Assembly (NCBI GenBank): GCA_963931495.1
Contig: OZ007020.1
Span: 810,001-842,000, forward strand
Source of the DNA: an uncultured Alphaproteobacteria bacterium
GTDB lineage: Bacteria > Pseudomonadota > Alphaproteobacteria > Rs-D84
Direction: 5' to 3'
DNA: 32,000 nucleotides
The translations under genes and the position numbers were made by a program. The notes beneath the pieces are model-generated. The model ran no database searches and was not told the origin of the DNA. It saw nothing but the letters and a program-made list of their open reading frames with translations. Positions 4,724-32,000 of this stretch are shown piece after piece (position 1 is the first letter of the stretch; each line of letters starts with the position of its first letter).

Positions 4724-4769
4724 AAAACTGCCGTTCGTTACGATTTCAAAAGAACCGCAACGCCGCCAG

Positions 4770-4798: not shown

Positions 4799-4823
4799 GG
4801 TTTTTATGCCGGCGCACAACAAT

Positions 4824-5297: not shown

Positions 5298-5528
5298 ATT
5301 TTCCCCTTTGTTATACGTGGTTTAAGTATAGCAAGACGGTCAAATTTATCAACAGAATATTATTCCGCATAATTTGCAAAAACATATCCTGTATTTCTGG
5401 GGATAATATACTAATTTTTTTCTTGATTAATCTATAAAATTGTAAAGTAAATTTGATGCAAGGTATTCTTGCATTGTGTTGAATATATTGAATAAAACAC
5501 GCAATTCTCAACATTGTTATCAAACTCC

Positions 5529-5564
5529 AACCACCGACATGGATTTGGTGGTTTTGTTATTTTG
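5529..5564 (+). terminator. Orphan hairpin plus T-tract just upstream of the 5579 ORF
   Basis: Stem AACCACC/GGTGGTT (5529-5535 / 5547-5553), 11-nt loop, then TTTTGTTATTTT. No plus-strand gene lies upstream for it to terminate. Confidence 0.35.
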
Positions 5565-5578
5565 TAAAGGAGTATAAC

Positions 5579-5992
5579 ATGACCGATAACATAGTCGCAA
5601 CATTTGGAAATATCACTTTGACTGATAAGTGTATTAAATTTGTATCAAAAAAATTAACAAGTCAAAAAACACAAACAATTTTTTTACAAGATATAAGCTT
5701 GGTGAATATGGATATCAAATCGCATTCTGTATATCTTGTCGTAGCTGCGGTTTGTTTCGCGCTATTATTTGTCGGAATGTCTGTTACAGCTAATCTGATT
5801 TCTTTTGGAATAGGTGTTGCACTGTGTATAGCATTTTGGAAAATAAAAACATACACTTTAATTATAACGCCACATGCTGGTGCTGGGAAAGAAATAGCGT
5901 GTGAAGTAATTGGCGCTGTCAATAAAGAACAAGCCGATGATTTTATGGAAAAGTTAAACACATTGAAAGATAAATATATGAAGCGTAAATAA
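5579..5992 (+). CDS. Hypothetical membrane protein (137 aa, two central TM helices)
   Basis: SD AAAGGAG 6 nt upstream. Hydrophobic segments VYLVVAAVCFALLFVGMSV and LISFGIGVALCIAFW are flanked by soluble segments. Very A+T-rich. Confidence 0.6.
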   Translation: MTDNIVATFGNITLTDKCIKFVSKKLTSQKTQTIFLQDISLVNMDIKSHSVYLVVAAVCFALLFVGMSVTANLISFGIGVALCIAFWKIKTYTLIITPHAGAGKEIACEVIGAVNKEQADDFMEKLNTLKDKYMKRK

Positions 5993-6002
5993 AGGATATA
6001 TA

Positions 6003-6209
6003 ATGAAAGCAATAATTTGCATGGTATTTTGTTTTATATGCATCATTAATGCATACAGCATTAATAATGATGCAGTATCTGTTATGCACCAGATTTATGC
6101 CGGTCAGTGGGGGTTAGCTGCTGTTCTGTTTTTCTGTGCGGCGTTTCTACTGGATGCATTAAATCCCAAAACAAATAAGAAATCTGATGATAAATTAGGA
6201 GAAAAATAA
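6003..6209 (+). CDS. Hypothetical small membrane/secreted protein (68 aa)
   Basis: SD AAAGGA. N-terminal signal-like MKAIICMVFCFICIINAYS and a second hydrophobic segment WGLAAVLFFCAAFLL. Its stop overlaps the next start (TAATG). Confidence 0.5.
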   Translation: MKAIICMVFCFICIINAYSINNDAVSVMHQIYAGQWGLAAVLFFCAAFLLDALNPKTNKKSDDKLGEK

Positions 6210-6535
6210 TGAAAGCATTATTTATGTCTCTTTTTCTATTAATTATAAACGTTCCAGCATATGCACTTACAACAAGAGAAATAAAATCTGTGTGTGCTGA
6301 AATTGCGGCAGAACAGGCTGAAACGGATGAAAGTGTTGATTTACATGTTCAGAAATTAATTGAAAATGCTTGTATTTGTGTCGGGCTAGAAATTCCTAGC
6401 TCTATTTCAAAACAAAAATTTAAGCAATTAATTATGACCGAGGACGAATCAATAACAGATATATACAAAGTTTGTGCCATACAAGAATTGTTTTCAATGC
6501 CGGAAATGCAGCTACTAATGCTGTCAGATTTTTAA
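6209..6535 (+). CDS. Hypothetical secreted protein (108 aa)
   Basis: SD AGGAG. Signal peptide MKALFMSLFLLIINVPAYA. Translationally coupled to the preceding ORF. Confidence 0.55.
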   Translation: MKALFMSLFLLIINVPAYALTTREIKSVCAEIAAEQAETDESVDLHVQKLIENACICVGLEIPSSISKQKFKQLIMTEDESITDIYKVCAIQELFSMPEMQLLMLSDF

Positions 6536-6620
6536 TATAATGATATCTGCAACGGTAAATTCGGTACACACAGTTTCGTTTTAATTGCTGAAAACCAGAG
6601 CTTGTACATTCATTGTTCTT

Positions 6621-6656
6621 ACATAATAAAATCAGCCACCGATATGGTGGCTGATT
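6621..6656 (-). terminator. Rho-independent terminator downstream of tRNA-Asp (could also stop the plus-strand islet operon)
   Basis: Perfect 11-bp stem AATCAGCCACC/GGTGGCTGATT (6630-6640 / 6646-6656), 5-nt loop. T-rich tract follows on the minus strand. Confidence 0.65.
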
Positions 6657-6661
6657 ATTTC

Positions 6662-6739
6662 TGGCGGGATTGACGGGGCTCGAACCCGCGACCTTCTGCG
6701 TGACAGGCAGACGCTCTAAACCAGCTGAGCTACAACCCC
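6662..6739 (-). tRNA. tRNA-Asp (anticodon GUC)
   Basis: Minus-strand read GGGGTTGTAGCTCAGCTGGTTTAGAGCGTCTGCCTGTCACGCAGAAGGTCGCGGGTTCGAGCCCCGTCAATCCCGCCA. Anticodon loop CTGTCAC, encoded CCA. Confidence 0.93.
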
Positions 6740-6756
6740 TGTAAAGCAAGGCATAT

Positions 6757-6783
6757 ATTATACTGTTGTCGGAATAAATGCAA
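6757..6783 (-). promoter_or_regulatory. Candidate promoter for tRNA-Asp
   Basis: Minus strand has TATAAT (6762-6757) about 18 nt upstream of the tRNA 5' end. A -35-like ACTTGCAT lies at 6785-6778. It shares the upstream string AAAAAACACTTG with the tRNA-Asn promoter. Confidence 0.45.
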
Positions 6784-6831
6784 GTGTTTTTTATAAAATT
6801 ATTTATTTATGTCTGACAACATGGCAAACAG

Positions 6832-6861
6832 TTGACTTTCCGCATGTATGACGATTATAAT
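6832..6861 (+). promoter_or_regulatory. Candidate promoter for the small lipoprotein gene
   Basis: TTGACT (6832-6837), 18 bp spacer, TATAAT (6856-6861). Confidence 0.45.
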
Positions 6862-6867
6862 AAACGC

Positions 6868-6987
6868 ATGAAAAAAATTGTGTTATGTGTTTTATTAATT
6901 TCATCACTGGGCGTCGCTGCGTGCGGTGTTAAGTCTGATTTAGAAAAGCCCAACCCATCGTTCCCACGTGAATACCCAGTATATTAA
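6868..6987 (+). CDS. Small lipoprotein (39 aa), LptM/YifL-like in size and shape
   Basis: Not in the track (under 60 aa). MKKIVLCVLLISSLGVAACGVKSDLEKPNPSFPREYPVY has a classical lipobox LGVAAC followed by a short Pro-rich tail. Confidence 0.55.
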   Translation: MKKIVLCVLLISSLGVAACGVKSDLEKPNPSFPREYPVY

Positions 6988-7000
6988 TTTGGGCGCTGTC

Positions 7001-7085
7001 TGGTGCGGGTACAGAGATTTGAACTCTGATGGGTTGCCCCACTGGAACCTAAATCCAGCGCGTCTGCCAATTTCGCCATACCCGC
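7001..7085 (-). tRNA. tRNA-Leu (anticodon UAG), class II with long variable arm
   Basis: Minus-strand read GCGGGTATGGCGAAATTGGCAGACGCGCTGGATTTAGGTTCCAGTGGGGCAACCCATCAGAGTTCAAATCTCTGTACCCGCACCA. Anticodon loop TTTAGGT, encoded CCA, 85 nt. Confidence 0.92.
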
Positions 7086-17070: not shown

Positions 17071-18318
17071 ATGATGAATATTTTTATGATGATTTTGGTT
17101 GCGGTATTTATGGTTGGTTTTTATATGATAAACAGCCCCAGTCAACGCGTCCCCGAACAGGAAACAGAATACGCAATCAGAATGTCTGATTTACGTTCTG
17201 TGGCTGAATGCGCTGTTGCCGCACATAATGCGAAAATTCGCGGCACAAGTTTCCAAGATATATGCATTGACCAAAATTCTGTGGCCAGCCAATCTGTGTG
17301 TATGAATGCCAGTAAACGTATTACTGAATGTGCAATTGTTAGCAATCGCGCCCCAGAATACAGTTATATTATAACAACAACTGCCCCATTACAGGACGGT
17401 GATTATAACAATATGCTGGAAATTCTGGAAACAAATTTCCCAGATGCGGGAACATTTGGAATATTTCTGGATGGGAAAATAATGCTGGGGGGGATATCCG
17501 GGGCGGCAAATGTACCAGATGCAATTATTAATGAACTGGAATTACAAAACGGGCAAATTGTATATATGACCCAATATGAAATACCGACCACCACAAACGT
17601 TATCACCGCAACCACCGCAGCAAATGGCCAAGATGTCGTATGTCCGATTGGCACAATAAAAACATATCGGTTCAGCCGGTGGCAATGCATCCCATTTAAC
17701 ACACAAACAGACTGTGGCGGTGATATGATATGGGATTCTGAATTACAGACATGTGTGGCCGATGAAAATAAAAAGCCACTGTGCGCCGAACAGCAAACCG
17801 CCGTATTGGTTGACAGTGTGTGGGAATGTGTGAACCCATTCCCAGAAAAGGCATGCCCCAGCGGAATGATTGCGCGATTAAATTATTCAACACTGGAATG
17901 GGAATGCGTGGCAGATCCATCTGTTACGAATAATATAAAGAAGTGCGAAACCGTCACCATCAGTCCAACATTCGGCATCGTTGGGACAACCGCTGGGATT
18001 TCGTCGTCGTCATGCACAGACTGTGAACGCGCAATCATTAATCCAGACACGTGCGCAACAACATGTGTACCCGATCCAACAAAGATAACGGACCCGCGAT
18101 GCTATGGCGATACAGATGCATGTTCGGGTCCAAATCGTGCAATTTATTTCGGATTTCCAAACGCGTCATATGCCGCGAATGTCAGTGAAATAAACGGACT
18201 GCGCATCCCGATTGATTCCAGTCATTCGCAAAACAGAAAATTTAATTGCTTGGATTGCGGTGACGGGGAAATTGATTCTGAACAATCCGTACCGCCATAT
18301 ATTGCGATATGCAAGTAA
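17071..18318 (+). CDS. Cys-rich secreted/membrane-anchored protein with internal W-x-C repeats
   Basis: SD AGGGGG. N-terminal hydrophobic helix MMNIFMMILVAVFMVGFYMI. Many Cys overall, with four tandem ~25-aa modules ending RWQCI / LQTCV / VWECV / EWECV (nt 17641-17913). Confidence 0.7.
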   Translation: MMNIFMMILVAVFMVGFYMINSPSQRVPEQETEYAIRMSDLRSVAECAVAAHNAKIRGTSFQDICIDQNSVASQSVCMNASKRITECAIVSNRAPEYSYIITTTAPLQDGDYNNMLEILETNFPDAGTFGIFLDGKIMLGGISGAANVPDAIINELELQNGQIVYMTQYEIPTTTNVITATTAANGQDVVCPIGTIKTYRFSRWQCIPFNTQTDCGGDMIWDSELQTCVADENKKPLCAEQQTAVLVDSVWECVNPFPEKACPSGMIARLNYSTLEWECVADPSVTNNIKKCETVTISPTFGIVGTTAGISSSSCTDCERAIINPDTCATTCVPDPTKITDPRCYGDTDACSGPNRAIYFGFPNASYAANVSEINGLRIPIDSSHSQNRKFNCLDCGDGEIDSEQSVPPYIAICK

Positions 18319-18325
18319 AAAAAGA

Positions 18326-18348
18326 AACGCCCAATTGGGCGTTTTTTA
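18326..18348. terminator. Bidirectional terminator between convergent genes
   Basis: Stem AACGCCC/GGGCGTT with loop AATT, A-run before and T-run after. Confidence 0.65.
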
Positions 18349-18795
18349 TTTGTCATACTGGTTAATTAAATGTTGCAAATTCACCAGTTCTGTTTTTATA
18401 GCATCACGTTCTTGGGCAAAGCGCTGTTTATCGCGGGCATAGTCCGCACATTGCGACGCATCATATACATTCGTATCCATACTGATATCACAATTTTCCA
18501 ATTTATCGTCCAGTTCATCCACACGGTGCGCCAATTCATCGCGCCGCTTTAACAATTGCGACAGGCGCAATTTCGCATCGCTGTAATTTCGTTGTTTCTG
18601 GGCATTGGTCAGAACAGAATCGGCGTGTGATACACGTGATAAATCTTGTTCCAATTCGTTTATATATTCTTGGGATTCTTTGATATCTGCACTGTCATTA
18701 TGGTTACGCGCGGCAAGCGTTTTTGCCACATCCAGTTCTTGTTTTATATCGCTGATTACATTACCCAGTTTTACTGGTTTTATACTGTTTGTCAT
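18346..18795 (-). CDS. Coiled-coil protein of unknown function (149 aa)
   Basis: Heptad-rich, charged sequence (ELEQDLSRV...LRLSQLLKRRDELAHRVDELDDKLE). Only sizeable ORF in the interval. Confidence 0.6.
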   Translation of the reverse strand: MTNSIKPVKLGNVISDIKQELDVAKTLAARNHNDSADIKESQEYINELEQDLSRVSHADSVLTNAQKQRNYSDAKLRLSQLLKRRDELAHRVDELDDKLENCDISMDTNVYDASQCADYARDKQRFAQERDAIKTELVNLQHLINQYDK

Positions 18796-19109
18796 ATATC
18801 CACCCCATTGTCACCAACAATTATACACTAAAACAGGCTGAATTCATATTACTAAAATAAAAATAGCGTTTTTATGGACAACTTTTTGACGCATTTTGTC
18901 AATATATAGTTATTGATTCGGCAAATAACACCTATATTTTGTATTTTTATATAAAAAACGAATCATTTCCCATCACAAAAACAGGATTTTTTTGACACAA
19001 AAACAGATTTTGTGTACAGACATCATGAATCGCACCTGATTCAATACCGCAGAAATCCAGCATTTCAAAAAGTAAAGCGAAAAATAAAAAAATTTTTAAT
19101 TTTTATATG

Positions 19110-19138
19110 TTGTTACAAAAGCCCATATACTATATATT
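19110..19138 (+). promoter_or_regulatory. Candidate nrdD promoter
   Basis: TTGTTA (19110-19115), 17 bp spacer, TATATT (19133-19138), about 60 nt upstream of the nrdD ATG. Confidence 0.4.
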
Positions 19139-19142
19139 GTTA
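19127..19142. promoter_or_regulatory. NrdR-box-like palindrome 1
   Basis: ATACTATATATTGTTA versus my recollection of the NrdR consensus acaCwAtATaTwGtgt: the core CTATATATTG matches at every position. Overlaps the candidate -10. Confidence 0.4.
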
Positions 19143-19159
19143 TCAAAACGGTAAAAAGA

Positions 19160-19175
19160 CCACTATATGTTGTAA
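19160..19175. promoter_or_regulatory. NrdR-box-like palindrome 2
   Basis: CCACTATATGTTGTAA, with core CACTATATGTTG close to the same consensus. Starts 33 bp after box 1, i.e. about three helical turns, as is typical for tandem NrdR boxes. Confidence 0.4.
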
Positions 19176-19198
19176 TTTATGAGAATCGGAGTGTAAAA

Positions 19199-21247
19199 AT
19201 GTCAGTACCAGGAAACGATAATAAAATTCAAGTGATTCCAACATTTAACACCAAACTGGTTGCGATTCAAAAACGCACGGGGGAAACAGTTCCATTTGAT
19301 GCCAAAAAGATATTTGATGCGATAAGAAAAGCGGTCGCTGTCACCCATGAAATATCTGATGACCAGACGGCAACAATAACGCAAAATGCCATAAAAAAAC
19401 TGGAACAACGATTTGCTGATAAAACGCCATCTGTGGAAAACGCACAAGAATCTGTGATTGAAGCCTTGATGGATGCCCATGCATACAAAACGGCAGAATC
19501 ATACATTGTATATCGTCAAAAACGCACAGAAATTCGTGATTCGTACGTTGATGCGGTTGATGTCATAGAAGGCTATGTCGGCGGTTCAAATTGGCGTATC
19601 AAGGAAAACGCCAATATCGGTTATTCTATTGGTGGATTAATTTTAAGAACATCTGAACGGGTAACGGCGGAATATTGGTTGAACCTGTACCCACGCGAAG
19701 TTGCCGAAGCGCACAAAAACGCATCTATACACATTCATGATTTGGGATGGTTGACCGGGTATTGCGCCGGGTGGTCACTGCGCGAATTGTTATACGAAGG
19801 TTTTAATGGTGTTCCCGGGTATTTACAATGTGCACCGGCCCGGCATATGGCAACCGCTATTTCACATATGGTTAATTTCTTGGGGACGTTGCAAAATGAA
19901 TTTGCCGGTGCCCAGGCGTTTTCATCGGTTGATACATACTTGGCACCGTATGTCCGCGTTGATAACATGTCGTATGCCGATGTAAAGAACGCGATGCAAA
20001 CGCTGGTATTCAATTGTGCGGTGCCATGTCGGTGGGGAACCCAGACGCCGTTTATCAATTTTACATTTGATTGGACATGTCCCGAAGATTTGAAATCACA
20101 ACATCCATTTATTGGAAAGCAACAAATGGATTTTACATATGGTGATTTACAAACAGAAATGGATATGATTAACAAGGCATTTTTGGAAGTCATGTCCGAA
20201 GGTGACGCCATGGGTCGCCCGTTTACATTCCCAATTCCGACGTACAATATTACCAAAGATTTTCCATGGGAACATCCGAATGTAAAACCACTGTTTGATT
20301 TGGCGGCCAAATATGGTACACCGAATTTTCAAAACTTTTTGAATTCGGATTTGAATCCAACGGATGTTCGTTCAATGTGCTGTCGGTTACGTCTGGACGT
20401 GCGCGAGTTGTTAAAACGCGGTGGTGGATTATTTGGTTCGGCGGAAAAGACTGGATCAATCGGCGTTGTAACCATTAACTTGGCCAGACTGGGGTACATA
20501 CATCGTGGTGACCGTGATGGTTTGTTCCGTGAATTAAAACGCTTGCTGGATTTGGCGCGCGATTCATTGGAAATCAAACGTCGCATAATTACCAAAAATA
20601 TGGAACGCGGACTGTATCCGTTTACACGTCGTTATCTGGGGAATTGGAATCACCATTTTTCAACCATTGGTGTAAATGGCGCGAATGAAATGGTTCGCAA
20701 CTTTACAAATGATAAAGAAAATATTGCGACACCGATGGGCAAAAAACTGGTGTTGGATTTAATGGACTTTATACGTGACAACCTGGTCACGTTCCAGGAA
20801 CAGACGGGTAATTTGTATAATCTGGAAGCAACCCCCGCCGAAGGGTGTTCGTATCGCTTTGCCAAAACAGATGTTAAAAATTTCCCGGACATTATTACGG
20901 CGGGAACGCATGATGCGCCGTACTATACAAATTCAACGCAATTGCCGGTGAATTACACAGACGATCCGTTTGTCGCACTGGAACATCAAGAAGAACTGCA
21001 ACGGAAATACACGGGTGGAACAATGTTGCACCTGTATATGGGTGAACCGGTATCCAGTGGCGAAGCCGCCCAGAAAATCGTGCGCACAATATTTGAAAAT
21101 TACAAAATTCCGTACATGACGTTAACCCCAACGTTTTCAATATGTCCAAAACATGGATATATCCCGGGACGTCATGAATTCTGTCCGAAATGCGACGCAG
21201 AAATTGCCGCAAATCAAAATACAGAATCAGAACCAGTTTCACAATAA
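19199..21247 (+). CDS. nrdD: Anaerobic (class III) ribonucleoside-triphosphate reductase, large polypeptide lacking the glycyl-radical tail
   Basis: N-terminal ATP-cone (VAIQKRTGETVPFDAKKIFDAIRKA). NrdD core motifs (YTNSTQLPV, LQRKYTGGTMLHLYMGE, PYMTLTPTFSICPKHGY). Zn-ribbon CPKH...CPKC at the C-terminus. Ends at TAA 21245-21247 before any RxxGY glycyl-radical motif. Confidence 0.92.
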   Translation: MSVPGNDNKIQVIPTFNTKLVAIQKRTGETVPFDAKKIFDAIRKAVAVTHEISDDQTATITQNAIKKLEQRFADKTPSVENAQESVIEALMDAHAYKTAESYIVYRQKRTEIRDSYVDAVDVIEGYVGGSNWRIKENANIGYSIGGLILRTSERVTAEYWLNLYPREVAEAHKNASIHIHDLGWLTGYCAGWSLRELLYEGFNGVPGYLQCAPARHMATAISHMVNFLGTLQNEFAGAQAFSSVDTYLAPYVRVDNMSYADVKNAMQTLVFNCAVPCRWGTQTPFINFTFDWTCPEDLKSQHPFIGKQQMDFTYGDLQTEMDMINKAFLEVMSEGDAMGRPFTFPIPTYNITKDFPWEHPNVKPLFDLAAKYGTPNFQNFLNSDLNPTDVRSMCCRLRLDVRELLKRGGGLFGSAEKTGSIGVVTINLARLGYIHRGDRDGLFRELKRLLDLARDSLEIKRRIITKNMERGLYPFTRRYLGNWNHHFSTIGVNGANEMVRNFTNDKENIATPMGKKLVLDLMDFIRDNLVTFQEQTGNLYNLEATPAEGCSYRFAKTDVKNFPDIITAGTHDAPYYTNSTQLPVNYTDDPFVALEHQEELQRKYTGGTMLHLYMGEPVSSGEAAQKIVRTIFENYKIPYMTLTPTFSICPKHGYIPGRHEFCPKCDAEIAANQNTESEPVSQ

Positions 21248-21280
21248 AACAAAAAAAAACAGAAAGGGAGGAAAAGTATT

Positions 21281-21469
21281 ATGTCAGCATCAGAAAACAC
21301 ACAAAGAACACCATGTGAAATCTTTTCGCGTTCTATGGGTTTTTACAGACCGGTATCTAATTTTAACATTGGAAAATATTCTGAATTCTGTGAACGCAAG
21401 ACATTTACAGAATCTAATTGTCTGACAACCGGTCAACGTCACAGTGAACTGATGAAAAAGGCGGCATAA
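21281..21469 (+). CDS. Stand-alone NrdD glycyl-radical domain peptide (62 aa)
   Basis: CEIFSRSMGFYRPVSNFNIGKYSEFCERKTF matches the NrdD C-terminal pattern E(V/I)xSRxxG(Y/F)YRPV..(W/F)N.GK..E...R. Candidate radical Gly codon at 21338-21340. Strong SD AGGGAGG (21265-21271) 9 nt upstream of the ATG. Same reading frame as nrdD. Confidence 0.8.
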   Translation: MSASENTQRTPCEIFSRSMGFYRPVSNFNIGKYSEFCERKTFTESNCLTTGQRHSELMKKAA

Positions 21470-21474
21470 TAAAA

Positions 21475-22176
21475 ATGCATGAAATTCAGATTGGTGGTTT
21501 GGTTTCGTTCACAACAATTGATTATCCGGGAAAATTGGCCGCGGTGCTGTTTTTGACGGGTTGTCCATTGCGATGCGCGTATTGTTCAAACACCAATCTG
21601 ATAAATGTTCGTGACGGCGAATATGACCCGGCAAAGGTTCTGGAATGGCTGGGGACACGTGTCGGCAAACTGGAAGCCGTCGTTTTTTCTGGTGGCGAAG
21701 CGTTGATGCAGGGCGACGTCGTAATTGAATATATGCGACGTGTGCGCCAGTTGGGTTTCGCAATCGGATTACATACAAACGGCTTTTATCCAGACACACT
21801 GGCACGCGCGGCAGATACAGTTGATTGGATTGGAATGGATTACAAAACAACCAGAAATAAATATGCGGATTTAGTTGGGCAAAACATCGCACATGACCAT
21901 ATGATTCGCAGTCTGGCCGTGTGGCAATCAACCGGCAAGGATTACGAGGTTCGTATCACATGCGATCCGCGATTTGTTACAAAAATGGATTTAATGGAAA
22001 TTGCAAATGACCTGCATTCACGGGGTGTCAAGAATTTTGCGGTTCAGAAATATATTCCTTATTACGAAGACGAAGCGAATACGACGACACCCGATCAACG
22101 GGCCCAGTTTTTTAATGATGATAATTTGCGCAACACAATAAACAAATTGTTTGATTCTGTCACTTGGCGTGAATAG
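21475..22176 (+). CDS. nrdG: Anaerobic ribonucleotide reductase activating enzyme (radical SAM)
   Basis: GGLVSFTTIDYPGKLAAVLFLTGCPLRCAYCSN carries the CxxxCxxC radical-SAM cluster motif. Starts 5 nt after the preceding stop. Confidence 0.88.
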   Translation: MHEIQIGGLVSFTTIDYPGKLAAVLFLTGCPLRCAYCSNTNLINVRDGEYDPAKVLEWLGTRVGKLEAVVFSGGEALMQGDVVIEYMRRVRQLGFAIGLHTNGFYPDTLARAADTVDWIGMDYKTTRNKYADLVGQNIAHDHMIRSLAVWQSTGKDYEVRITCDPRFVTKMDLMEIANDLHSRGVKNFAVQKYIPYYEDEANTTTPDQRAQFFNDDNLRNTINKLFDSVTWRE

Positions 22177-22203
22177 TTTTTTTCAACACATAAACACGGA
22201 TGC

Positions 22204-22225
22204 CCCCGCCGTGGGAGTGGCGGGG
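22204..22225. terminator. GC-rich hairpin between nrdG and the convergent Cys-rich gene
   Basis: Stem CCCCGCC/GGCGGGG with an 8-nt loop. No clean T-run on either side, so terminator function is uncertain. Confidence 0.3.
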
Positions 22226-22256
22226 ACACGGGGCGTGGAAACACGTAAAAAATAGT

Positions 22257-22700
22257 TTAATTTTGGTAATACGCGGCGGATGTGCATGTCCAACTGCCGG
22301 TGCTGTCACTGCCGGTTAATTGGTTGGCGGGAACATAACATGATGTTATTCCGCCACTGCCGTCTTCGCTGGTCCCGGGAGCGGGGCAAGAATAACACCC
22401 GTTGTTATAGTAGTTACCGGCACCACAACCTGCTTCGCATTCATAATATACACAAGTGGAATTTCCGATTTGATGCGATATGCGTCTGTAACCTGAATTA
22501 CATGTGTCGCACGATGTGTATTTTAACCCGTTGTCACACACATACGATGTTTTTGCGCATGATCCGGCAGGTCCGACACCGTTGTTAACAGGGGTATCAA
22601 ATGACGTGCACATACACCCCACCGGCGTCACCGAAATTGCATTGGCGCAAAATGGAAATAACATCATTGCTGAAAGCAAACCACCGTTTGGATTCGGCAA
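22257..22700 (-). CDS. Small Cys-rich secreted protein (up to 147 aa)
   Basis: Hydrophobic N-terminus (LLSAMMLFPFCANA), then 19 Cys including CDTCNSGYRR...CVYYECEAGCGAGNYYNNGCYSCPAPG. The start is uncertain (TTG 22700 or ATG 22667). Confidence 0.55.
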   Translation of the reverse strand: MPNPNGGLLSAMMLFPFCANAISVTPVGCMCTSFDTPVNNGVGPAGSCAKTSYVCDNGLKYTSCDTCNSGYRRISHQIGNSTCVYYECEAGCGAGNYYNNGCYSCPAPGTSEDGSGGITSCYVPANQLTGSDSTGSWTCTSAAYYQN

Positions 22701-22748
22701 AAAACGGGATATAAAAAATGCAGAATTCTGGGATTTTTACAAAAATAA

Positions 22749-22773
22749 AAACCGCCATTATAAACGGTGGTTT
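22749..22773 (-). terminator. Probable ligA terminator
   Basis: Hairpin AAACCGCC/GGTGGTTT (one non-Watson-Crick pair), followed on the minus strand by TTTTTATTTTT. Confidence 0.45.
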
Positions 22774-22926
22774 AGATTAGGCATTAATTTATGCTTTTAT
22801 TCTATATTTATCTGAATTTTATGTCAACAAAAATAAAACGCATAACTTTGTCACGCATCGTTTCAATCTGGCTTTGCGGCGATATATATCGTAACAATTG
22901 CACATTGATAAACATACGAAAATAAT

Positions 22927-25222
<2,296 letters not shown>

Positions 25223-25326
25223 TATTACCCCCCCTATCCCGTTATTTTATTGATTTTTTAGGATTGTATTCTAATTATGATTGAATATTTTCAAAAAATC
25301 AATTATTTTTTATCAGAAAATATTCA

Positions 25327-25359
25327 TAAAAAATCCCGCCAAACGGCGGGACGTTTTTT
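25327..25359. terminator. Bidirectional terminator downstream of fabI
   Basis: A-run, stem CCCGCC/GGCGGG (25335-25340 / 25345-25350), loop AAAC, T-run. Confidence 0.65.
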
Positions 25360-25375
25360 ATCTGTAAATGATATT

Positions 25376-26197
25376 TTACTGATTGTTTTGTTCGTCCAAT
25401 CCGCGTAACAAAACGTCTTTCAAATCATTTGGTATCATCCCAGTCGTGGAATATCCACAATCAACATGATGCACTTCGCCAGTGACCGCACTGGACAAAT
25501 CACTGAACAAATACACGGCCGCCCCAGATACATCATCCAATGTCATATTGCGACGCAGTGGGGTCTGTTCGGCATTCAGACGCAGCATGGATTTCATGCC
25601 GCCAACACCAGATGATGCCAACGTCATAATCGGACCCGCACTGATTGCGTTAATGCGGATTTTATCACGTCCCAAATCTGATGCCAGATAACGAACACTG
25701 CTGTCCAGGGCGGATTTCGCCACACCCATAACATTATAGTTCGGCACAGACTTTTCCCCGCCATAGTATGTTAATGTCACAATACTGCCCCCGTCGGTCA
25801 TCAGTTTTGATGCACGACGCGTCAAATCAACCAACGAATATACAGATACATCCATCGTGTTTTTAAAATTCGCACGCGTTGTGTCGGCATAACGACCGGT
25901 CAGTTCATTCTTGTCTGAAAATGCAATCGCATGCAGCATGCCGTCTAAATGCCCCCATTCCCGTTCAATATTCGCAAACAAAGAATCCATTTGTTCGTCA
26001 TTTTGAACGTTGCATTCCTGGACAAATTTTGCCCCGATTGATTCTGCCAGTGGACGTACGCGTTTTTCCAAATTTGGCATCGCATACGGCATGGCGATTT
26101 CAGCACCTTCGTCATGGGCACGCTTTGCAATTGCCCACGCCATAGACCAATCATTTGCAACACCAGTAATTAAAATCTTTTTTCCTTTTAATAACAT
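25376..26197 (-). CDS. fabI: Enoyl-[acyl-carrier-protein] reductase (NADH)
   Basis: LLKGKKILITGVANDWSMAWAIAK and the catalytic region YNVMGVAKSALDSSVRYLA. Start placed at MLLKGKK (26197). Confidence 0.92.
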   Translation of the reverse strand: MLLKGKKILITGVANDWSMAWAIAKRAHDEGAEIAMPYAMPNLEKRVRPLAESIGAKFVQECNVQNDEQMDSLFANIEREWGHLDGMLHAIAFSDKNELTGRYADTTRANFKNTMDVSVYSLVDLTRRASKLMTDGGSIVTLTYYGGEKSVPNYNVMGVAKSALDSSVRYLASDLGRDKIRINAISAGPIMTLASSGVGGMKSMLRLNAEQTPLRRNMTLDDVSGAAVYLFSDLSSAVTGEVHHVDCGYSTTGMIPNDLKDVLLRGLDEQNNQ

Positions 26198-26277
26198 TTT
26201 GCTTCCTCTATGTTTTTTATTGGACGGGGTGGAATATAGCACTTAAAAAGATAAATCGCAATGAATAAAAAAAACAC

Positions 26278-26306
26278 TTGAAATAGGATAGAAAAGGTTA
26301 TATGAT
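26278..26306 (+). promoter_or_regulatory. Promoter for tRNA-Asn
   Basis: TTGAAA (26278-26283), 17 bp spacer, TATGAT (26301-26306), 11 nt before the tRNA 5' end. Confidence 0.55.
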
Positions 26307-26317
26307 ATGCGAGCTGT

Positions 26318-26393
26318 TCGGGCATAGTTCAGTCGGTAGAACAACGGACTGTTAATCCGTATGTCACTGGTTCGAGTCCAGTTGCCCGAGCCA
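26318..26393 (+). tRNA. tRNA-Asn (anticodon GUU)
   Basis: TCGGGCATAGTTCAGTCGGTAGAACAACGGACTGTTAATCCGTATGTCACTGGTTCGAGTCCAGTTGCCCGAGCCA. 7-bp acceptor stem, anticodon loop CTGTTAA, encoded CCA. Confidence 0.93.
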
Positions 26394-26399
26394 CAGATT

Positions 26400-26424
26400 T
26401 CCGCAGATTTCTGCGGATTTTTTA
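26400..26424 (+). terminator. tRNA-Asn terminator
   Basis: Stem TCCGCAG/CTGCGGA, loop ATTT, then a T6 run. Confidence 0.55.
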
Positions 26425-26515
26425 TTATCTGTCTTCTGCCCTATTTTTATGCAAAATTGGATGAAAATGGCTCTAAATTGCTCTAGTTGTAGAACAAAAA
26501 CACATATTTGACACA

Positions 26516-26593
26516 CAGTAATATATACCATTACTGCTGAAATCATCTCTGATTTCAAGTATGAAATCTGTGTGATTTCAGAGATGATTTCAG
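26516..26593. repeat. Two abutting dyad symmetries just inside the island
   Basis: CAGTAAT-N7-ATTACTG (26516-26536), immediately followed by a perfect 16-bp inverted repeat CTGAAATCATCTCTGA (26537-26552) / TCAGAGATGATTTCAG (26578-26593). Confidence 0.6.
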
Positions 26594-26647
26594 GGGCTAA
26601 AATCGTACCCCTGTTTTAACAAATAAATGATGAACGTATGGTATAAA

Positions 26648-26678
26648 ATGCGTCCAAAAAACAATACCGGGGACGCAT
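26648..26678 (-). terminator. Probable terminator of the T5orf172 gene
   Basis: 8-bp stem ATGCGTCC/GGACGCAT flanking a 15-nt loop. T-rich on the minus strand. Abuts the stop codon. Confidence 0.4.
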
Positions 26679-27298
26679 TATTCTTCTTCGGAATCTTTTC
26701 TTTCTTTTATTTCCGTCAAAACAATACCATTATATTCAAAAAAAGATGGTCCACGATAATGCTTCCAATTATACCCAAGGTCTAGCATCAACTGTTTAGC
26801 AAGCTCGCTTAAAGAATACGTTTTACCCTCATAAATAACGTTGGCTAAATCTGGGGCAACTACACATGTTTTTTCTTTATTTCGTGTAAATGTTAAAATC
26901 GCACCCGCAGGAATCCCATATGTTGCAAAATTAAATCGCTTTGCTGTCACTGATAAATTATCGTTTGTTATTTGAATAGCATTCCCATTTTCATCAATCA
27001 TGTCATCATCTGTTTTTATTTCGGTTCCCAGCATGCATAACACAGAAACCACACGTTCTGGGGCTATTTTAAAGAACTCCCTGTTAGGTCGGATACGATA
27101 GTCAGAAAAAGCATCGTGTACCCTTTTTTCTTTAAATTCACAATTGTCGGTTTCTACTGCATAATGACACCTAAATGGCACCGGAACACTAGTAGAATCT
27201 AGGCTTGTCAAACGCTGTTTAATATCATTTGTTTTTCCAATTTTAACAATGCCTGGCATGGCATCATTAGTTAATACATATAAAATACCCTTTGCCAT
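26678..27298 (-). CDS. T5orf172/MUG113 (GIY-YIG-superfamily) domain protein with an extra C-terminal domain
   Basis: GILYVLTNDAMPGIVKIGKTNDIKQRLTSL...VHDAF..YRIRPNREFF is the T5orf172 pattern. The C-terminal ~95 aa (FNFATYGIPAGAILTF...CVV...VIYEGKTYSLSELAKQL...GPSFFEYNGIVL) resemble the RAMA/DUF4357-type modules often fused to it (tentative). SD AAGGTGG. Confidence 0.8.
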   Translation of the reverse strand: MAKGILYVLTNDAMPGIVKIGKTNDIKQRLTSLDSTSVPVPFRCHYAVETDNCEFKEKRVHDAFSDYRIRPNREFFKIAPERVVSVLCMLGTEIKTDDDMIDENGNAIQITNDNLSVTAKRFNFATYGIPAGAILTFTRNKEKTCVVAPDLANVIYEGKTYSLSELAKQLMLDLGYNWKHYRGPSFFEYNGIVLTEIKERKDSEEE

Positions 27299-27528
27299 AA
27301 AACCACCTTAGTTTAAACACTTTCTTTGTAACTGTTTTAACGATTGACCTGGCCAACATCCAGGTTCTATTGTTATTCCAGATAATTATACGAAATAATC
27401 GCAATTAAATCAAAGCTTATGTTGTATGTAGATGGTTCTAGGTGTATCTGGCAACAAAAGGCTGGAAAAAAAATCATTCCCATACTATTATTAACAAAGA
27501 AATTTACTTTATACAGAAAGGTTTTATC

Positions 27529-30500
27529 ATGACAGCAAATGATTTTCGCTTTTTTACCAATTCTGACAAAGACTCGTTGCTTGAGCGTTTCCAAAAAACA
27601 CTAAGGGGCGCAAAATATTTCGATGTCTTAGTTGGTTATTTTTTTTCCAGCGGTTTTAACAATTTAAGCGATGCCCTTGATTCTGTAGAAAAAATTCGCA
27701 TTCTTGTTGGCCTAAGCACAGATAGGCAAGTAGTTTCTATTTTAGAAGAATACAGAGAACAAGGACAATTAAAACTTTCTCGTCATGATGTAAAAGAAGA
27801 TGTTGCCAATCGCATAAAGAAAGAATATGAAAACTGTGAGGATTCACCTGAGGTTGAGCGAAGCACTGACATTTTACGCAAAATGATAGCAGAAAAACGT
27901 TTAGAAATTCGTGCTTTCCCTGAACGCAACATCCACGCTAAAGTCTATATCACTCGTTACCCAGAAGGAGATCGTGATTTTGGCCGTGTTATTACAGGTT
28001 CTAGTAACTTCTCTGAAAATGGTCTGTGTGCCAATCGTGAATTTAATGTAGAATTAAAAGACGAGCCTGATGTTCGCTTTGCTTTGGAACGTTTTGAAGA
28101 ACTTTGGAAAGACAGCGATGATGTCACCAAGGATTACATTGAAACAATTGACACGCATACCTGGTTAAACCCATCTATCACTCCATATGAAATATACTTA
28201 AAATTTTTGTATGAGTATTTCAAGGAAGAAATCAACTTTGATAAGGAGGGTGGTTTTATGCTACCAGACGGCTTTATGGAGTTGGAATACCAGAAACAAG
28301 CTGTGTCGGCGGCCAAAAAGATTTTGAATGCATACAACGGTGTTTTCTTGGCTGACGTTGTTGGGTTAGGAAAAACCTATATCACATCTTTGTTACTACA
28401 ACAGCTGCCGTCTGAACGCAAGCTTATTATCTGTCCGCCTGTGCTGATGGAAAGCTGGAAAAATGCCGTACGTGATTTTCGTGTTGGTGGCGCCTATGTT
28501 GAATCTCTAGGAAAACTGGATAGAGTTGAACGTGAGGCTGATAATTACGATGTAATTGTAATTGATGAAGCTCATCGTTTCCGCAATGAAGTCACATATG
28601 GGTATGAAAAATTGCAGCGGATTTGCCAAAACAAAAAAGTGGTTCTGGTATCTGCGACACCAATCAACAACAAGTTTGAAGACTTACTTTCCTTGATTAA
28701 ACTATTTCAGCCAGTTAAACAAAGTACAATTCCGGGTATTGTTAATCTTGAACAATTCTTTAAGACACAATCGGCTCGTTTAGTAGGAAAAGAAAAAGGC
28801 ACAAAAGAGTATTTGGACGCTATATCTGAAGCTTCTACAGAAATTCGCAACAAAGTGTTATCCCATTTGATGGTTCGCCGCACCCGCACCGAAATAAAAA
28901 AGTTCTTTAGTAAGGACATAAAAAATCAAGGGCTACATTTCCCTGAACCAGCCAACCCACAACGAATTGTCTATAAATTTGACAAACAGATAGATGCGAT
29001 ATTTAACCAGACCATTGATTTGTTAAAAAGCTTCTCATACTCACGTTATACACCGCTGTTGTTTTTGAAAGAAAAACCAGACCAACTGGTTGAACAACGC
29101 CAGCGCAATATCGGGGGGTTCATGAAGGGGATTTTGGTTAAACGTTTGGAAAGTAGTTTCTACGCTTTTAAACAGTCAACTAACCGTTTTGTGACTTCTT
29201 ATGAACGTTTTATTGATATGTTCCAAAAAGGCACTGTATACATTAGCAATAGGGTCAATGTTTACGATTTATTGGATAATGACCAAGAATCAAAACTGAT
29301 AAAATTGGTTGAAGAAGAAAAGGCAGAACAATACGAATCAAGTGCATTCAATGACGATTTCTTACCAAAATTAAGACAGGACTTAGCGATTTTAAAGCAG
29401 ATTCAAGAATTGTGGGCAAAAGTCAATAAAGACCCAAAAGCAGACGAATTTGTTCATATGTTAAAAACCGATAAGACTCTGGTAGGCAATAAAGTTATAG
29501 TGTTTTCTGAATCCAAAGAAACATCCGATATATTGTATGAACGTTTGTCTAAGGAATTCCCTGGACGTGTTTTACGTTATTCCAGTGAAGGTGCTGATTT
29601 TAATAATGTGAAATTACCGCCAGAAACAGCACGTCAGATTATCAATGAGAATTTTGACCCACGTGAAAAACAACAATCGAATGATATTGATATTTTGATC
29701 ACAACAGACGTCTTGGCGGAAGGTGTTAATTTGCACCGTGCTAATATACTGGTTAACTATGATTTACCATGGAATCCAACACGAGTTTTACAGCGTGTTG
29801 GCCGTATAAACCGTGTAGGTTCTAAATTTACAGAATATTTTGTGTATAACTGTTTCCCTACTGCAGAATCAAACGACCACATCCACTTGGAAGAAAATAT
29901 TATTTCTAAAATTCAGGCATTTCATAACACCTTGGGTAGTGATGCAAAAATTCTATCCGATGGCGAAGAAATAACCAGCCATGGACTGTTTGGACGTTTG
30001 AACAGCAAAAAAGAATTGGAAGGCGAGGACGATACAGCTGAATCAGAATTGAAGTATCTAACAGTAATACGTGATGTGCGTGATAAGGACCCTGCTTTAT
30101 TTGAGAAAGTGAAACGCTTACCACGAAAAGCTCGTACTGCAACCGTTTCTGAAGATAGACCAAACAGCCTTATTAGCTTCTTCCGCAAAGGGGCATTGAA
30201 AAAATTTGTTTATTCTGATGACAAGCGATCTGATGAGATTGACTTTATGACCGCCGCCAAGGCCTTTGAATGTACCAGCGCACAAGAAAAAAAGCCTATA
30301 CCAAAGGAATTCTTTAATTTGTTAAATCGTAACAAGGCGTTCTTAGATGCTCTGACACACACTGAAGAACACATGCCAACAATCCGTTCCGGTCGTTCCA
30401 ATGATTCAAATATTTTGACTGTGGTTAAATTTCTAATGAAAGACACCACCACATTCACAGAGGAAGACGAAGAATTTTTACAGGCTTTACGCAAAACCAT

Positions 30501-30702
30501 TGAAATGGGCATGCTGCCAAAAAAGACTGCTCAGGACACGAATAAAGAATTAAAAAAGCACAACCTGAATGACCGTATCAAAGTTCTGGGGTTGCTAAAA
30601 AGCCGTTTGTCCAAATCAGTCAATTATCGTACAAACACCCCGGAAAAACCTGCTGGGGACGTTCGTGAAATCATATTGTCTGAATACTTTTATGGAGAAT
30701 AA
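27529..30702 (+). CDS. PLD-family nuclease domain fused to an SNF2/DEAH-box helicase (1057 aa)
   Basis: A single HKD motif NIHAKVYITRY...ITGSSNFSENG (His codon 27934-27936). Helicase motifs DVVGLGKT (I), VIVIDEAHRFRN (II, 28558-), LVSATPINN (III), ITTDVLAEGVNL and LQRVGRINRVG (VI). ATG 27529 is preferred over the track start (27442) because the conserved domain begins there and AGAAAGG precedes it. Confidence 0.9.
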   Translation: MTANDFRFFTNSDKDSLLERFQKTLRGAKYFDVLVGYFFSSGFNNLSDALDSVEKIRILVGLSTDRQVVSILEEYREQGQLKLSRHDVKEDVANRIKKEYENCEDSPEVERSTDILRKMIAEKRLEIRAFPERNIHAKVYITRYPEGDRDFGRVITGSSNFSENGLCANREFNVELKDEPDVRFALERFEELWKDSDDVTKDYIETIDTHTWLNPSITPYEIYLKFLYEYFKEEINFDKEGGFMLPDGFMELEYQKQAVSAAKKILNAYNGVFLADVVGLGKTYITSLLLQQLPSERKLIICPPVLMESWKNAVRDFRVGGAYVESLGKLDRVEREADNYDVIVIDEAHRFRNEVTYGYEKLQRICQNKKVVLVSATPINNKFEDLLSLIKLFQPVKQSTIPGIVNLEQFFKTQSARLVGKEKGTKEYLDAISEASTEIRNKVLSHLMVRRTRTEIKKFFSKDIKNQGLHFPEPANPQRIVYKFDKQIDAIFNQTIDLLKSFSYSRYTPLLFLKEKPDQLVEQRQRNIGGFMKGILVKRLESSFYAFKQSTNRFVTSYERFIDMFQKGTVYISNRVNVYDLLDNDQESKLIKLVEEEKAEQYESSAFNDDFLPKLRQDLAILKQIQELWAKVNKDPKADEFVHMLKTDKTLVGNKVIVFSESKETSDILYERLSKEFPGRVLRYSSEGADFNNVKLPPETARQIINENFDPREKQQSNDIDILITTDVLAEGVNLHRANILVNYDLPWNPTRVLQRVGRINRVGSKFTEYFVYNCFPTAESNDHIHLEENIISKIQAFHNTLGSDAKILSDGEEITSHGLFGRLNSKKELEGEDDTAESELKYLTVIRDVRDKDPALFEKVKRLPRKARTATVSEDRPNSLISFFRKGALKKFVYSDDKRSDEIDFMTAAKAFECTSAQEKKPIPKEFFNLLNRNKAFLDALTHTEEHMPTIRSGRSNDSNILTVVKFLMKDTTTFTEEDEEFLQALRKTIEMGMLPKKTAQDTNKELKKHNLNDRIKVLGLLKSRLSKSVNYRTNTPEKPAGDVREIILSEYFYGE

Positions 30703-30705
30703 GTC

Positions 30706-32000
30706 ATGCGTATAGATGAAGCCAAACAATTAGTGACCAACGTATTAAAAAACGGATACGACGAAAATAAATTCCGTGAATTGGTGCGTAATCTGTTCAC
30801 AGACTTTACACCAAAAGATGATGTATACCGTGGCACCCTTATTTGGGAGGCTTTTCGTGAGCACATTTCTTCGTATAAACGTTTGGCGAAATACGAGAAT
30901 AATGGTCAGTCTATTGATGTCTTGGCCGTTTGTGTAAAAAGCGCCAACAAGTTGGAACATGCTCGCACTATGCTGCGTAATTTTGTGTCTAAATACCTGA
31001 ATGGTGGCCGTGGCGGTGTTACTAAAGATGCTGCTTTGGTCGCATTCTATGCACCAGAATGTTCTGATTGGCGATTATCATTGGTCAAAATGGATTACAA
31101 TTACAACGAGGAAAAACAAAGGATTCAAACCGATTTTACACCTGCACGACGCTACTCTTTCTTGGTTGGGGCCAACGAACAAGTTCATACAGCCTGCAAA
31201 CAGTTTTTAGACGTACTTGTAACTGGCGGCAATCCAACTCTACACGAGCTGGAACAGGTATTTAGCATTGAAACTGTATCCAAAGAATTCTTTGAAAAAT
31301 ATAAGGAGCTATTCCTGCGTTTGGTTGATTCTGTCAATGATATCCGTGAGAAAAATGCACGCATCAACTCTGATTTTGAACTCAATAACATAAGCACATC
31401 TTTGTTCTGCAAAAAACTATTGGGACAGATTGTTTTCCTGTATTTTTTGCAGAAAAAGGGTTGGCTAGGTGTAGAAAAAGGCAACCTGTGGGGTACTGGC
31501 GACAAGCACTTCTTGCGTTCTCTGTTTACTATGGCTATATCCAAGGGCGCAAATTATTTCAATGATTATCTCGAACATTTATTCTATGAGGCTATCGCTC
31601 AAAAACGTCCGAATGACTATTTCCCTCTATTTGAATGCAAAATTCCTTTCTTAAACGGAGGCTTGTTTGATCCTATAAAAGATTATGACTGGCGAGGATT
31701 TGACGTTTTAATACCTAATGAGATCTTCTCAAACAAAAATCCGACCAATGAAGGTGATATTGGGGACGGTATACTGGACGTATTTGATCGCTATAATTTC
31801 ACAGTTCGTGAAGATGAAGCGCTGGAAAAAGAAGTGGCTGTCGACCCAGAAATGTTGGGCAAGGTATTTGAAAACTTGTTGGAAGTCAACGATCGAAAAT
31901 CTAAAGGGGCATTCTATACTCCACGTGAAGTTGTTCATTTTATGTGCCAAGAATCCCTCATAAACTATCTGTATAACAAGGTCAATTGTGTTCAAAAAGA
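30706..32000 (+). CDS. Gamma-class N6-adenine DNA methyltransferase of Eco57I/MmeI/PglX/DrmMI type (N-terminal 431 codons; continues beyond window)
   Basis: Absent from the track because it runs off the window. My translation is open from ATG 30706 to 31998. Motifs seen: QIVFLYFLQKKGWLG, IPFLNGGLFD, ILDVFDRYNFTVRED, DPEMLGKVFENLL, and the start of the SAM-binding region GAFYTPREVV (31906-). The ATG lies 3 nt after the helicase stop, with GGAGA upstream. Confidence 0.88.
   Translation, partial: MRIDEAKQLVTNVLKNGYDENKFRELVRNLFTDFTPKDDVYRGTLIWEAFREHISSYKRLAKYENNGQSIDVLAVCVKSANKLEHARTMLRNFVSKYLNGGRGGVTKDAALVAFYAPECSDWRLSLVKMDYNYNEEKQRIQTDFTPARRYSFLVGANEQVHTACKQFLDVLVTGGNPTLHELEQVFSIETVSKEFFEKYKELFLRLVDSVNDIREKNARINSDFELNNISTSLFCKKLLGQIVFLYFLQKKGWLGVEKGNLWGTGDKHFLRSLFTMAISKGANYFNDYLEHLFYEAIAQKRPNDYFPLFECKIPFLNGGLFDPIKDYDWRGFDVLIPNEIFSNKNPTNEGDIGDGILDVFDRYNFTVREDEALEKEVAVDPEMLGKVFENLLEVNDRKSKGAFYTPREVVHFMCQESLINYLYNKVNCVQK

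Follow-up and report, generated by a model that had tools for sequence, protein, structure and literature searches.

The window analysed in this study is a stretch of 32,000 nucleotides from an uncultured Alphaproteobacteria bacterium (contig OZ007020.1, positions 810,001-842,000). At 27529-32000, it carries two adjoining genes, which encode a PLD-SNF2 nuclease-motor protein and a Type IIG-like N6-adenine methyltransferase, and this locus is cut by the window edge. Judged by its sequence conservation, the pair is a conserved two-gene module, to which a shufflon is an optional addition. We consider it rather probable that the two proteins constitute a self-contained, ATP-dependent restriction-modification (RM) module, which resembles the Type III/ISP systems and can switch its specificity. 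What we observed is the domain content of the two proteins, the conservation of their catalytic motifs, the linkage of their genes in both directions and a natural inversion of half of the specificity domain. To extend the locus, we used a 958-kb ENA contig (L001), which is 100% identical to window positions 17529-32000. An IMG/VR contig (L089), which is 99% identical to window positions 26265-32000, served for comparison. The features of the module in the window are the following:

27529..30702, forward strand: PLD-SNF2 nuclease-motor gene, 1057 amino acids (open reading frame (ORF) 27442-30702; Pfam, PADLOC, NCBIfam, homologues)
27613..28107, forward strand: PLD/HKD nuclease domain, residues 29-193 (Pfam PLDc_2, E 5.5e-11, 42.9 bits vs a cut-off of 27)
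28288..29820, forward strand: SNF2-type ATPase core (Pfam SNF2-rel_dom, ResIII, Helicase_C)
29896..30699, forward strand: family-specific C-terminal domain, residues 790-1057 (conserved in the homologue alignment)
30706..32000, forward strand: Type IIG-like gamma-class N6-adenine methyltransferase, 5' part, 431 of 1122 codons (PADLOC, L001)
30706-31185, forward strand: N-terminal alpha/beta domain of the methyltransferase (AlphaFold2)
31186-31890, forward strand: helical domain of the methyltransferase (AlphaFold2)
31906-31923, forward strand: motif X, GAFYTP (methyltransferase sequence)

The nuclease-motor gene, which is also called the helicase gene in the following, has about 8000 database relatives. 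The exact 1057-residue protein is present on 17 public contigs, full-length relatives with more than 50% identity occur in Chloroflexota, Margulisiibacteriota, Nitrospirota, Syntrophales and other groups, and a scan of one genome per species yielded relatives in at least 583 species of many phyla. Linkage was counted in the best 80 helicase loci; 73 of them were informative, as their sequence continued for more than 1.5 kb downstream. Here, we found that a methyltransferase homologue followed downstream on the same strand in 72 of the 73 loci. The gap between the two genes did not exceed 200 nucleotides in 52 of these 72 loci and was longer in the remaining 20. Ten genes sampled from the longer gaps (L015-L086; for instance L020 3451-4506, L041 11219-12301 and L018 4335-5168) were of the RhuM-Fic, Bro-N, ORF6N, DUF1016/YhcG, AlbA_2-HATPase_c_4 and ATPase_2 types. 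Such genes are common passengers ('hitchhikers') of RM operons and have been seen inside Type I RM operons. When the search was reversed and started from the N-terminus of the methyltransferase, a PLD-SNF2 gene was adjacent in 27 of 28 loci, down to about 25-30% identity. All-against-all clustering of the neighbouring ORFs in 108 related loci gave no third conserved gene, and the commonest neighbour of the pair was an invertase (8/108 loci). A chance origin of the pair is ruled out by the hidden Markov model E-values, the about 8000 homologues and the conserved synteny that these comparisons returned.

More distant plasmid relatives (37% identity or less) were sampled in two records. The relative from a Parabacteroides distasonis plasmid (31% identity) keeps the helicase-methylase order, and in the one from an Allomeiothermus silvanus plasmid (29% identity), DNA methyltransferase genes occur upstream of the helicase but not downstream. 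In the Parabacteroides record (L087, NZ_OY725763.1, 8989-15652), a SNF2-related protein is followed by an N-6 DNA methylase. This pair is preceded by a helix-turn-helix regulator and an 'RNA-binding domain' protein, while a TIR-domain protein and an AAA protein come after it; these surroundings suggest a larger defence island.

A sequence-only reading of the window had placed a single HKD motif and a complete SNF2 core on one polypeptide, and this was borne out by Pfam and by motif search. The homologues start at ATG 27529, upstream of which a GAAAGG motif is found; thus, this codon is the likely true start and the product comprises 1057 amino acids. The PLD domain contains the catalytic motif of the PLD/HKD superfamily, HxK together with GSxN, at 27934-28008 (H136, K138 and G157-N160; the segment NIHAKVYI...GSSNFS spans residues 134-162). 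A second, cryptic HKD motif was sought across the 1057-residue protein and was not found, which leaves a single HxK/GSxN set. The HxK and GSSN residues were identical in 106 of 106 related loci in which they were readable.

The motor core belongs to the SNF2 family, since it combines an N-lobe and a Helicase_C lobe with Walker A (GKT, 28369-28377), DEAH (28564-28575) and motif VI (QRxGRxxR, in the Helicase_C lobe). The SNF2-related/ResIII N-lobe lies around residues 332-494 (SNF2-rel_dom E 1.2e-16, 61 bits vs a cut-off of 24.9; ResIII matches partially with 39.6 bits), and Helicase_C covers residues 643-764 (29455-29820, E 1.8e-17, 64 bits vs a cut-off of 23.5). The catalytic residues of the helicase are conserved as well, with GK(T/S), DE(A/S)H and motif VI kept in 105-106 loci. 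The best PDB sequence matches of the motor are Chd1, ISWI, Rad54 and RapA. Among the PADLOC models, which match both proteins of the pair, C3a139 'HKD+Snf2' covers residues 13-810 (2.8e-60) and ends at 810, and distant relatedness was recorded to DrmD, BrxHII, DpdE and HmaA (E 1e-36 to 1e-21). No motif had been recognised beforehand in the C-terminus, and indeed its last ~270 residues gave no Pfam match even at E ≤ 10. Similarly, Foldseek returned no PDB structure at E ≤ 1e-3 for the AlphaFold2 model of residues 790-1057 (predicted local distance difference test score, pLDDT, of 76).

At the gene junction, the stop codon TAA (30700-30702) is followed by GTC and by the ATG at 30706, and a GGAG motif is located 8 nucleotides upstream of this ATG. 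Translational coupling of the methyltransferase to the PLD-SNF2 gene, as predicted from the sequence, is supported. The spacing of 3 nucleotides and the methyltransferase motifs quoted in the sequence-only reading were both found as described; FLYFLQKKGWLG, FLNGGLFD, DPEMLGKVFENLL and GAFYTP are all present in the fragment. These 431 residues match PADLOC REase_MTase_IIG (PDLC03596) at 1e-133. The full-length protein, which was read from L001, has 1122 residues and matches the same model end to end (1010 bits, 3e-304). It carries Eco57I, N6_Mtase and TaqI_C specificity domains on one chain, and the proposal of a large adenine methyltransferase with its own specificity function has therefore held. 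The motifs are arranged in the order X (401), I (516) and IV (NPPY, 687), which identifies a gamma-class adenine methyltransferase, and GxFYTP, DPAxGSG and NPPY are kept in 83-96 loci. Since the catalytic residues of the nuclease, the ATPase and the methyltransferase are all conserved, the locus shows the pattern of a functional system and not that of a relic.

In the AlphaFold2 model of methyltransferase residues 1-431 (pLDDT 78), the N-terminal 160 residues fold into a confident alpha/beta domain, which is followed by the helical domain. The N-terminal domain is highly conserved, yet it lacks a conserved (D/E)xK. It gave no Pfam match at E ≤ 10, be it to MmeI_N or to another nuclease, residues 1-380 had no PDB match in sequence or profile searches, and a Foldseek search of the PDB with the 1-431 model likewise returned nothing at E ≤ 1e-3. 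Among 1.84 billion representative proteins, this domain defines 694 clusters. Among its 150 best-scoring matches, proteins of ~1030-1325 residues carry it at their extreme N-terminus, and the shorter matches mostly have 160-950 residues. As far as alignments and searches go, this domain and the C-terminal domain of the motor are confined to the pairing described here. No nuclease motif is recognisable in the N-terminal domain of the methyltransferase, and the module therefore probably relies on the PLD domain as its sole nuclease.

Beyond the window edge, L001 carries in this order the rest of the methyltransferase gene, a TaqI_C ORF, a serine recombinase, an EcoRI-like adenine methylase, an SNase-domain protein and host genes. 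The shufflon lies at L001 15624-18094, which corresponds to ~33150-35620 if the window continued, and at L089 8447-10914. The TaqI_C ORF (305 amino acids, opposite strand) is a silent specificity cassette, and the recombinase passes the NCBIfam cut-off of the 'master DNA invertase Mpi family' (316 bits vs 272). Three inverted-repeat pairs of 291, 45 and 47 nucleotides are located in and after the methyltransferase gene of L001. When L001 and L089 were compared, we found that an 801-bp segment bounded by the 45-nucleotide repeats is inverted. The methyltransferase of L089 is intact (1131 amino acids) and consists, in its specificity domain, of the L001 N-terminal half-domain (176/176 identical) and of the C-terminal half that is silent in L001 (132/132 identical). 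Conversely, the silent cassette of L089 is the half expressed in L001 (123/123 identical). The crossover falls in the conserved motif NDF(A/Y)KQKI(M/V)Y, and both reading frames remain intact. Thus, the two contigs show a natural, reciprocal half-domain swap of the specificity domain, and the locus has all the parts of an invertible-specificity shufflon: inverted repeats, a silent cassette, an adjacent invertase and both orientations. The contigs of independent short-read assemblies break off at codon 898 (L002, L003 and L005) or at codon 879 (L006), within the 291-nucleotide repeat arm (L001 15815-15872), as expected if this region is heterogeneous in the sampled populations. Among distant relatives, L107, L108, L112 and L114 carry the invertase at 60-68% identity, and L107, L108 and L114 also have the inverted cassette. 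As the methyltransferase alone carries the variable element, the most parsimonious interpretation is that this element guides methylation and restriction alike. Further system components had been considered possible past the window edge, but only the inverted specificity cassette and the invertase were found on L001.

The remaining genes of this region, at L001 18214-20201, encode an EcoRI-family adenine methylase of 265 amino acids, which has no obvious cognate endonuclease, and after it a 389-residue SNase-domain protein with a signal-peptide-like N-terminus.

From these data, we infer complex formation, translocation, a two-site rule, DNA cleavage and a role in defence as follows. The methyltransferase, which carries the sole specificity domain, would recognise an asymmetric site and methylate adenine there as a mark of self. 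At unmethylated sites, it would recruit the PLD-SNF2 effector, probably via its own N-terminal domain and the C-terminal domain of the motor, both of which are family-specific; the latter may act as an adaptor that forms the interface with the former. The effector would then translocate on the DNA or remodel it at the expense of ATP, and its PLD domain would make the cut. In PLD nucleases such as Nuc and BfiI, one active site is built from two HKD motifs. As each protomer of the protein described here contributes a single HKD half-site, two protomers should be required for an active nuclease, and the dimerisation which the sequence-only reading had derived from the single motif is supported. 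Such a need for two protomers would fit a collision-type licensing between two sites, which would be a natural feature of the system. Two-site collision licensing is what allows Type III and ISP systems to cope with methylation of a single strand. Finally, the shufflon, driven by the invertase, would swap halves of the specificity domain and thereby change the specificity of methylation and restriction together. An ATP-dependent, restriction-like function, as suggested in the sequence-only reading, remains the most likely one.

Several points weigh against this mechanism. Instead of working as classical translocating restriction motors, enzymes of the SNF2 family often serve to remodel protein-DNA complexes, and the PLD domain has an invariant R143 at the position of the canonical D in HxK(x)4D. 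In the N-terminal domain of the methyltransferase, the charged residues D71, E84, K107, D108, D121 and K128 are conserved, and the missing canonical nuclease motif is no proof that this domain is inactive. For the family as a whole, cleavage, ATPase activity, methylation and phage protection are all predicted functions. Moreover, the DnmA-YeeB-YeeC cluster, which comprises a comparable methyltransferase and a helicase, shows no restriction in B. subtilis (PMC9973331).

The conserved charged residues speak for the possibility that the methyltransferase is a self-sufficient Type IIG enzyme with a nuclease of its own at the N-terminus, and that it is merely accompanied by the PLD-SNF2 protein, whose role in defence would be separate or accessory. 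The alpha/beta domain does occupy the usual position of the nuclease, the Type IIG model of PADLOC matches end to end with 1010 bits, and stand-alone nuclease-helicase defence proteins (e.g., Hma) are known. However, we consider this explanation unlikely, since the domain lacks a conserved (D/E)xK and any nuclease match in Pfam at E ≤ 10, profile and fold searches led neither to MmeI nor to another solved nuclease, and the linkage (72/73 and 27/28) with translational coupling is far tighter than independent systems would give. Alternatively, the pair might act in the style of BREX or DISARM, in that unmethylated DNA is kept from replicating by something other than a simple site-licensed double-strand cut, or further host or unlinked factors might be needed. 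The distant relatedness of the helicase to DrmD, BrxHII, DpdE and HmaA points in this direction, as does the label PglX given to methyltransferase homologues in some databases. Nevertheless, this scenario appears distinctly improbable because DrmA, DrmB, PglZ and BrxC are absent within 10 kb downstream, there is no third conserved gene, the NCBIfam scores for DrmD and PglX stay far under their cut-offs and the catalytic PLD residues are invariant in the 106 readable loci.

The invertible specificity domain and the existence of natural variants would also be compatible with a phasevarion, in which the locus works mainly as an epigenetic switch: the phase-variable methyltransferase would regulate expression, and the PLD-SNF2 protein would be a relic or serve a non-defence purpose. 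There are precedents for regulatory enzymes of this kind, since DnmA of B. subtilis is an orphan regulator within a helicase/T5orf172 cluster (PMC9973331) and Cj0031-type enzymes are known phase-variable regulators (PMC9881135). In our case, we give this explanation very little weight: the nuclease and ATPase motifs are kept across 106 loci of many phyla, which argues against a relic, and the island also holds other defence-type genes. As for the effector itself, its order of a PLD domain, an SF2 (superfamily 2) motor and an uncharacterised C-terminal domain fits the layout of SauUSI, in which a PLD domain is followed by a helicase and a reader domain. The PLD-SNF2 protein could then be a modification-dependent, Type IV-like enzyme that attacks foreign modified DNA, and the role of the methyltransferase would be unrelated. 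We regard this as extremely improbable. The obligate operonic pairing with a methyltransferase marks systems from which modification protects, not those that depend on it; SauUSI was absent among the best 60 of 94 PDB sequence matches; and neither Pfam nor Foldseek detected similarity to a reader domain in the C-terminal domain of the motor.

When the pair was compared with known defence systems, class 1 DISARM was seen to share three components with it: a helicase of the SNF2 type, an adenine methyltransferase whose core is Eco57I-like and a nuclease of the PLD family. In DISARM, however, the PLD protein (DrmC) is separate, whereas it is fused to the motor here. The sequence-only reading had called the locus DISARM-like and had suggested extending the contig, with DrmA and DUF1998 downstream pointing to DISARM, PglZ or BrxC to BREX, and nothing further to a two-gene system. 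Over 10 kb past the helicase gene, L001 contains neither DrmA nor DrmB (DUF1998) nor PglZ nor BrxC. Neither DrmA nor DrmB is recurrent in the 108 related loci. The motor scores 154 bits with NCBIfam DISARM_DrmD (cut-off 610) and 82 bits with DrmD_b (cut-off 950), and PADLOC DrmMI matches the core of the methyltransferase only (residues 637-754, 94 bits), compared with the end-to-end match of 1010 bits to the Type IIG model. The NCBIfam PglX models yielded 34-48 bits vs cut-offs of 400-900. Because DrmA, DrmB, PglZ and BrxC do not follow the pair, it belongs to neither DISARM nor BREX; the DISARM-like assignment had to be abandoned and the extension favoured a two-gene system.

With the Type IIG enzymes (MmeI, Eco57I, Cj0031), the methyltransferase shares the order of N-terminal, helical, gamma-class methyltransferase and TaqI_C-type specificity domains, and it combines methylation and specificity on one polypeptide, as is defining for this type. 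In contrast to these enzymes, no nuclease motif and no similarity to MmeI_N or to the MmeI helical domain was detected in it, and it is obligately paired with an ATPase-nuclease, which the classical enzymes do not need. This near-obligate linkage also speaks against a cleavage that would depend neither on ATP nor on a separate subunit. The subunit logic of the pair resembles that of Type III (Mod and Res) or of a split Type ISP enzyme (LlaGI/LlaBIII): there as here, methyltransferase and specificity are combined on the one hand and an SF2 ATPase and a nuclease on the other. Asymmetric sites, one-strand methylation and licensing by ATP-driven communication between sites are expected as further common properties. 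The motor described here is of the SNF2 type, unlike theirs, and its N-terminal nuclease is a PLD domain with one HKD motif. Membership in Type ISP was rejected because there are two polypeptides instead of one and the nuclease is PLD, not Mrr, although the two are otherwise equivalent in their functional modules. Type III was rejected as well: its two-subunit composition is analogous, but the nuclease of the pair is an N-terminal PLD domain and not a C-terminal PD-(D/E)xK, and the methyltransferase is gamma-class and not a beta-class Mod.

Fusions of an HKD endoDNase with Swi2/Snf2 have been described as effectors beside a DUF1156 methyltransferase and DUF3780 in Type-2 BR, a DUF499-centred, BREX-related group of systems (Rakesh & Krishnan, 2026, PMC12839542). 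The likeness covers the N-terminal HKD nuclease fused to Swi2/Snf2, which PADLOC C3a139 recognises in our protein, and an N6-adenine methyltransferase beside the effector in a predicted RM-like system. The pair is not a member of this group: the DUF499 ATPase, the DUF1156 methyltransferase and DUF3780 are absent from L001 and none of them is recurrent in the related loci. In addition, the partner is of the Eco57I/TaqI_C type here, and the C-terminal 250 residues of the motor lie outside the C3a139 model.

The same architecture is found in a Bacteroides ovatus locus (CP083813.1), for which Table 3 of Milman et al. (2023, NAR, PMC9881135) lists a PLD (cd09178) and SNF helicase coding sequence directly upstream of a large Type II RM/methyltransferase. 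This locus is the target of a programmed inversion confirmed by long reads, and homologues are reported from three phyla (PMC9881135). As judged by the Table 3 entry, gene pair and gene order agree with ours and the coding sequence of the methyltransferase has the same length (3369 nucleotides). There, too, the specificity region is inverted by a nearby recombinase, and the enzyme is listed as a Cj0031-like Type II RM. In contrast to the present analysis, the locus was catalogued as an inversion target only, and neither a function nor a mechanism was tested or proposed for PLD-SNF. DISARM, BREX, Type ISP, Type III and Type-2 BR all fail on defining features. The sequence-only reading had regarded the layout as unclassified; its novelty was overstated because the architecture had already been catalogued. 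In the searchable literature, we found no named and characterised system with this exact pair, and as far as this literature shows, the architecture is unnamed and uncharacterised.

In the DnmA-YeeB-YeeC cluster, an SF2 helicase and a T5orf172 protein accompany a methyltransferase that is MmeI-like but has no nuclease motif, and in Vibrio crassostreae, deletion effects on phage sensitivity have been reported (PMC9973331). It shares with our locus the IIG-like methyltransferase lacking a nuclease motif, the SF2 helicase and a T5orf172 gene nearby. Unlike the motor described here, YeeB is described with a C-terminal SF2 helicase domain only and no PLD is mentioned; moreover, the pair described here has no conserved T5orf172 companion.

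These comparisons have practical consequences. Tools for defence finding would report a 'Type IIG' enzyme only and overlook the nuclease-motor, and 'Type IIG' calls of such loci may in fact be two-component, ATP-dependent systems with other cutting rules. If our mechanism is true, cleavage would be made dependent on two sites in a novel manner, through a PLD half-site carried by the SNF2 motor, which is relevant for the avoidance of self-attack by systems that methylate one strand. The half-domain shufflon, in turn, is a natural experiment that links specificity to methylation and restriction. In its widest form, the proposal reads that such loci represent a distinct and very widespread class of ATP-dependent RM systems, which have been mis-filed as 'Type IIG RM' and 'helicase-related protein'. 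In this class, cleavage would occur only when two methyltransferase-loaded motors meet and complete an HKD dimer, the two family-specific domains, which have not been described before, would couple the two proteins and the shufflon would re-programme methylation and restriction at once. We advance this wider proposal tentatively, as possible but somewhat doubtful.

Upstream of the pair, the window contains two further features:

26318..26393, forward strand: tRNA-Asn (GTT) (ARAGORN), left edge of a lower-GC island
26678..27298, reverse strand: T5orf172-domain protein, 206 amino acids (Pfam T5orf172 3e-16; PADLOC PDC-S57 1e-64)

A terminator-like hairpin (26400-26417) lies beside the tRNA gene, and the GC content is 0.43 to the left of tRNA-Asn vs 0.378 to the right. 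Because tRNA-Asn and the hairpin coincide with this drop, the helicase-methyltransferase pair sits in a small genomic island. The homology of L089 to the window begins at 26265, about 50 nucleotides ahead of tRNA-Asn. A direct repeat of the tRNA end, which would have marked where the island ends on the right, was sought and not found. To the left of the homology (L089 1-1560), short ORFs resemble, in translations inspected by eye only, an integrase N-terminal fragment and an AlpA-type excisionase.

The T5orf172 gene is located between tRNA-Asn and the helicase gene and is divergent from the latter. It was rejected as a member of the module, since its only tblastn match was in the near-identical L089 and it was absent from the other 107 related loci. 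Its product recalls YeeC, the T5orf172 protein of the DnmA-YeeB-YeeC cluster. Farther upstream and unrelated to the module, genes for tRNA-Glu, tRNA-Asp and tRNA-Leu are located on the reverse strand at window positions 4648-7085, together with a low-GC stretch (0.36 over 5001-7000).

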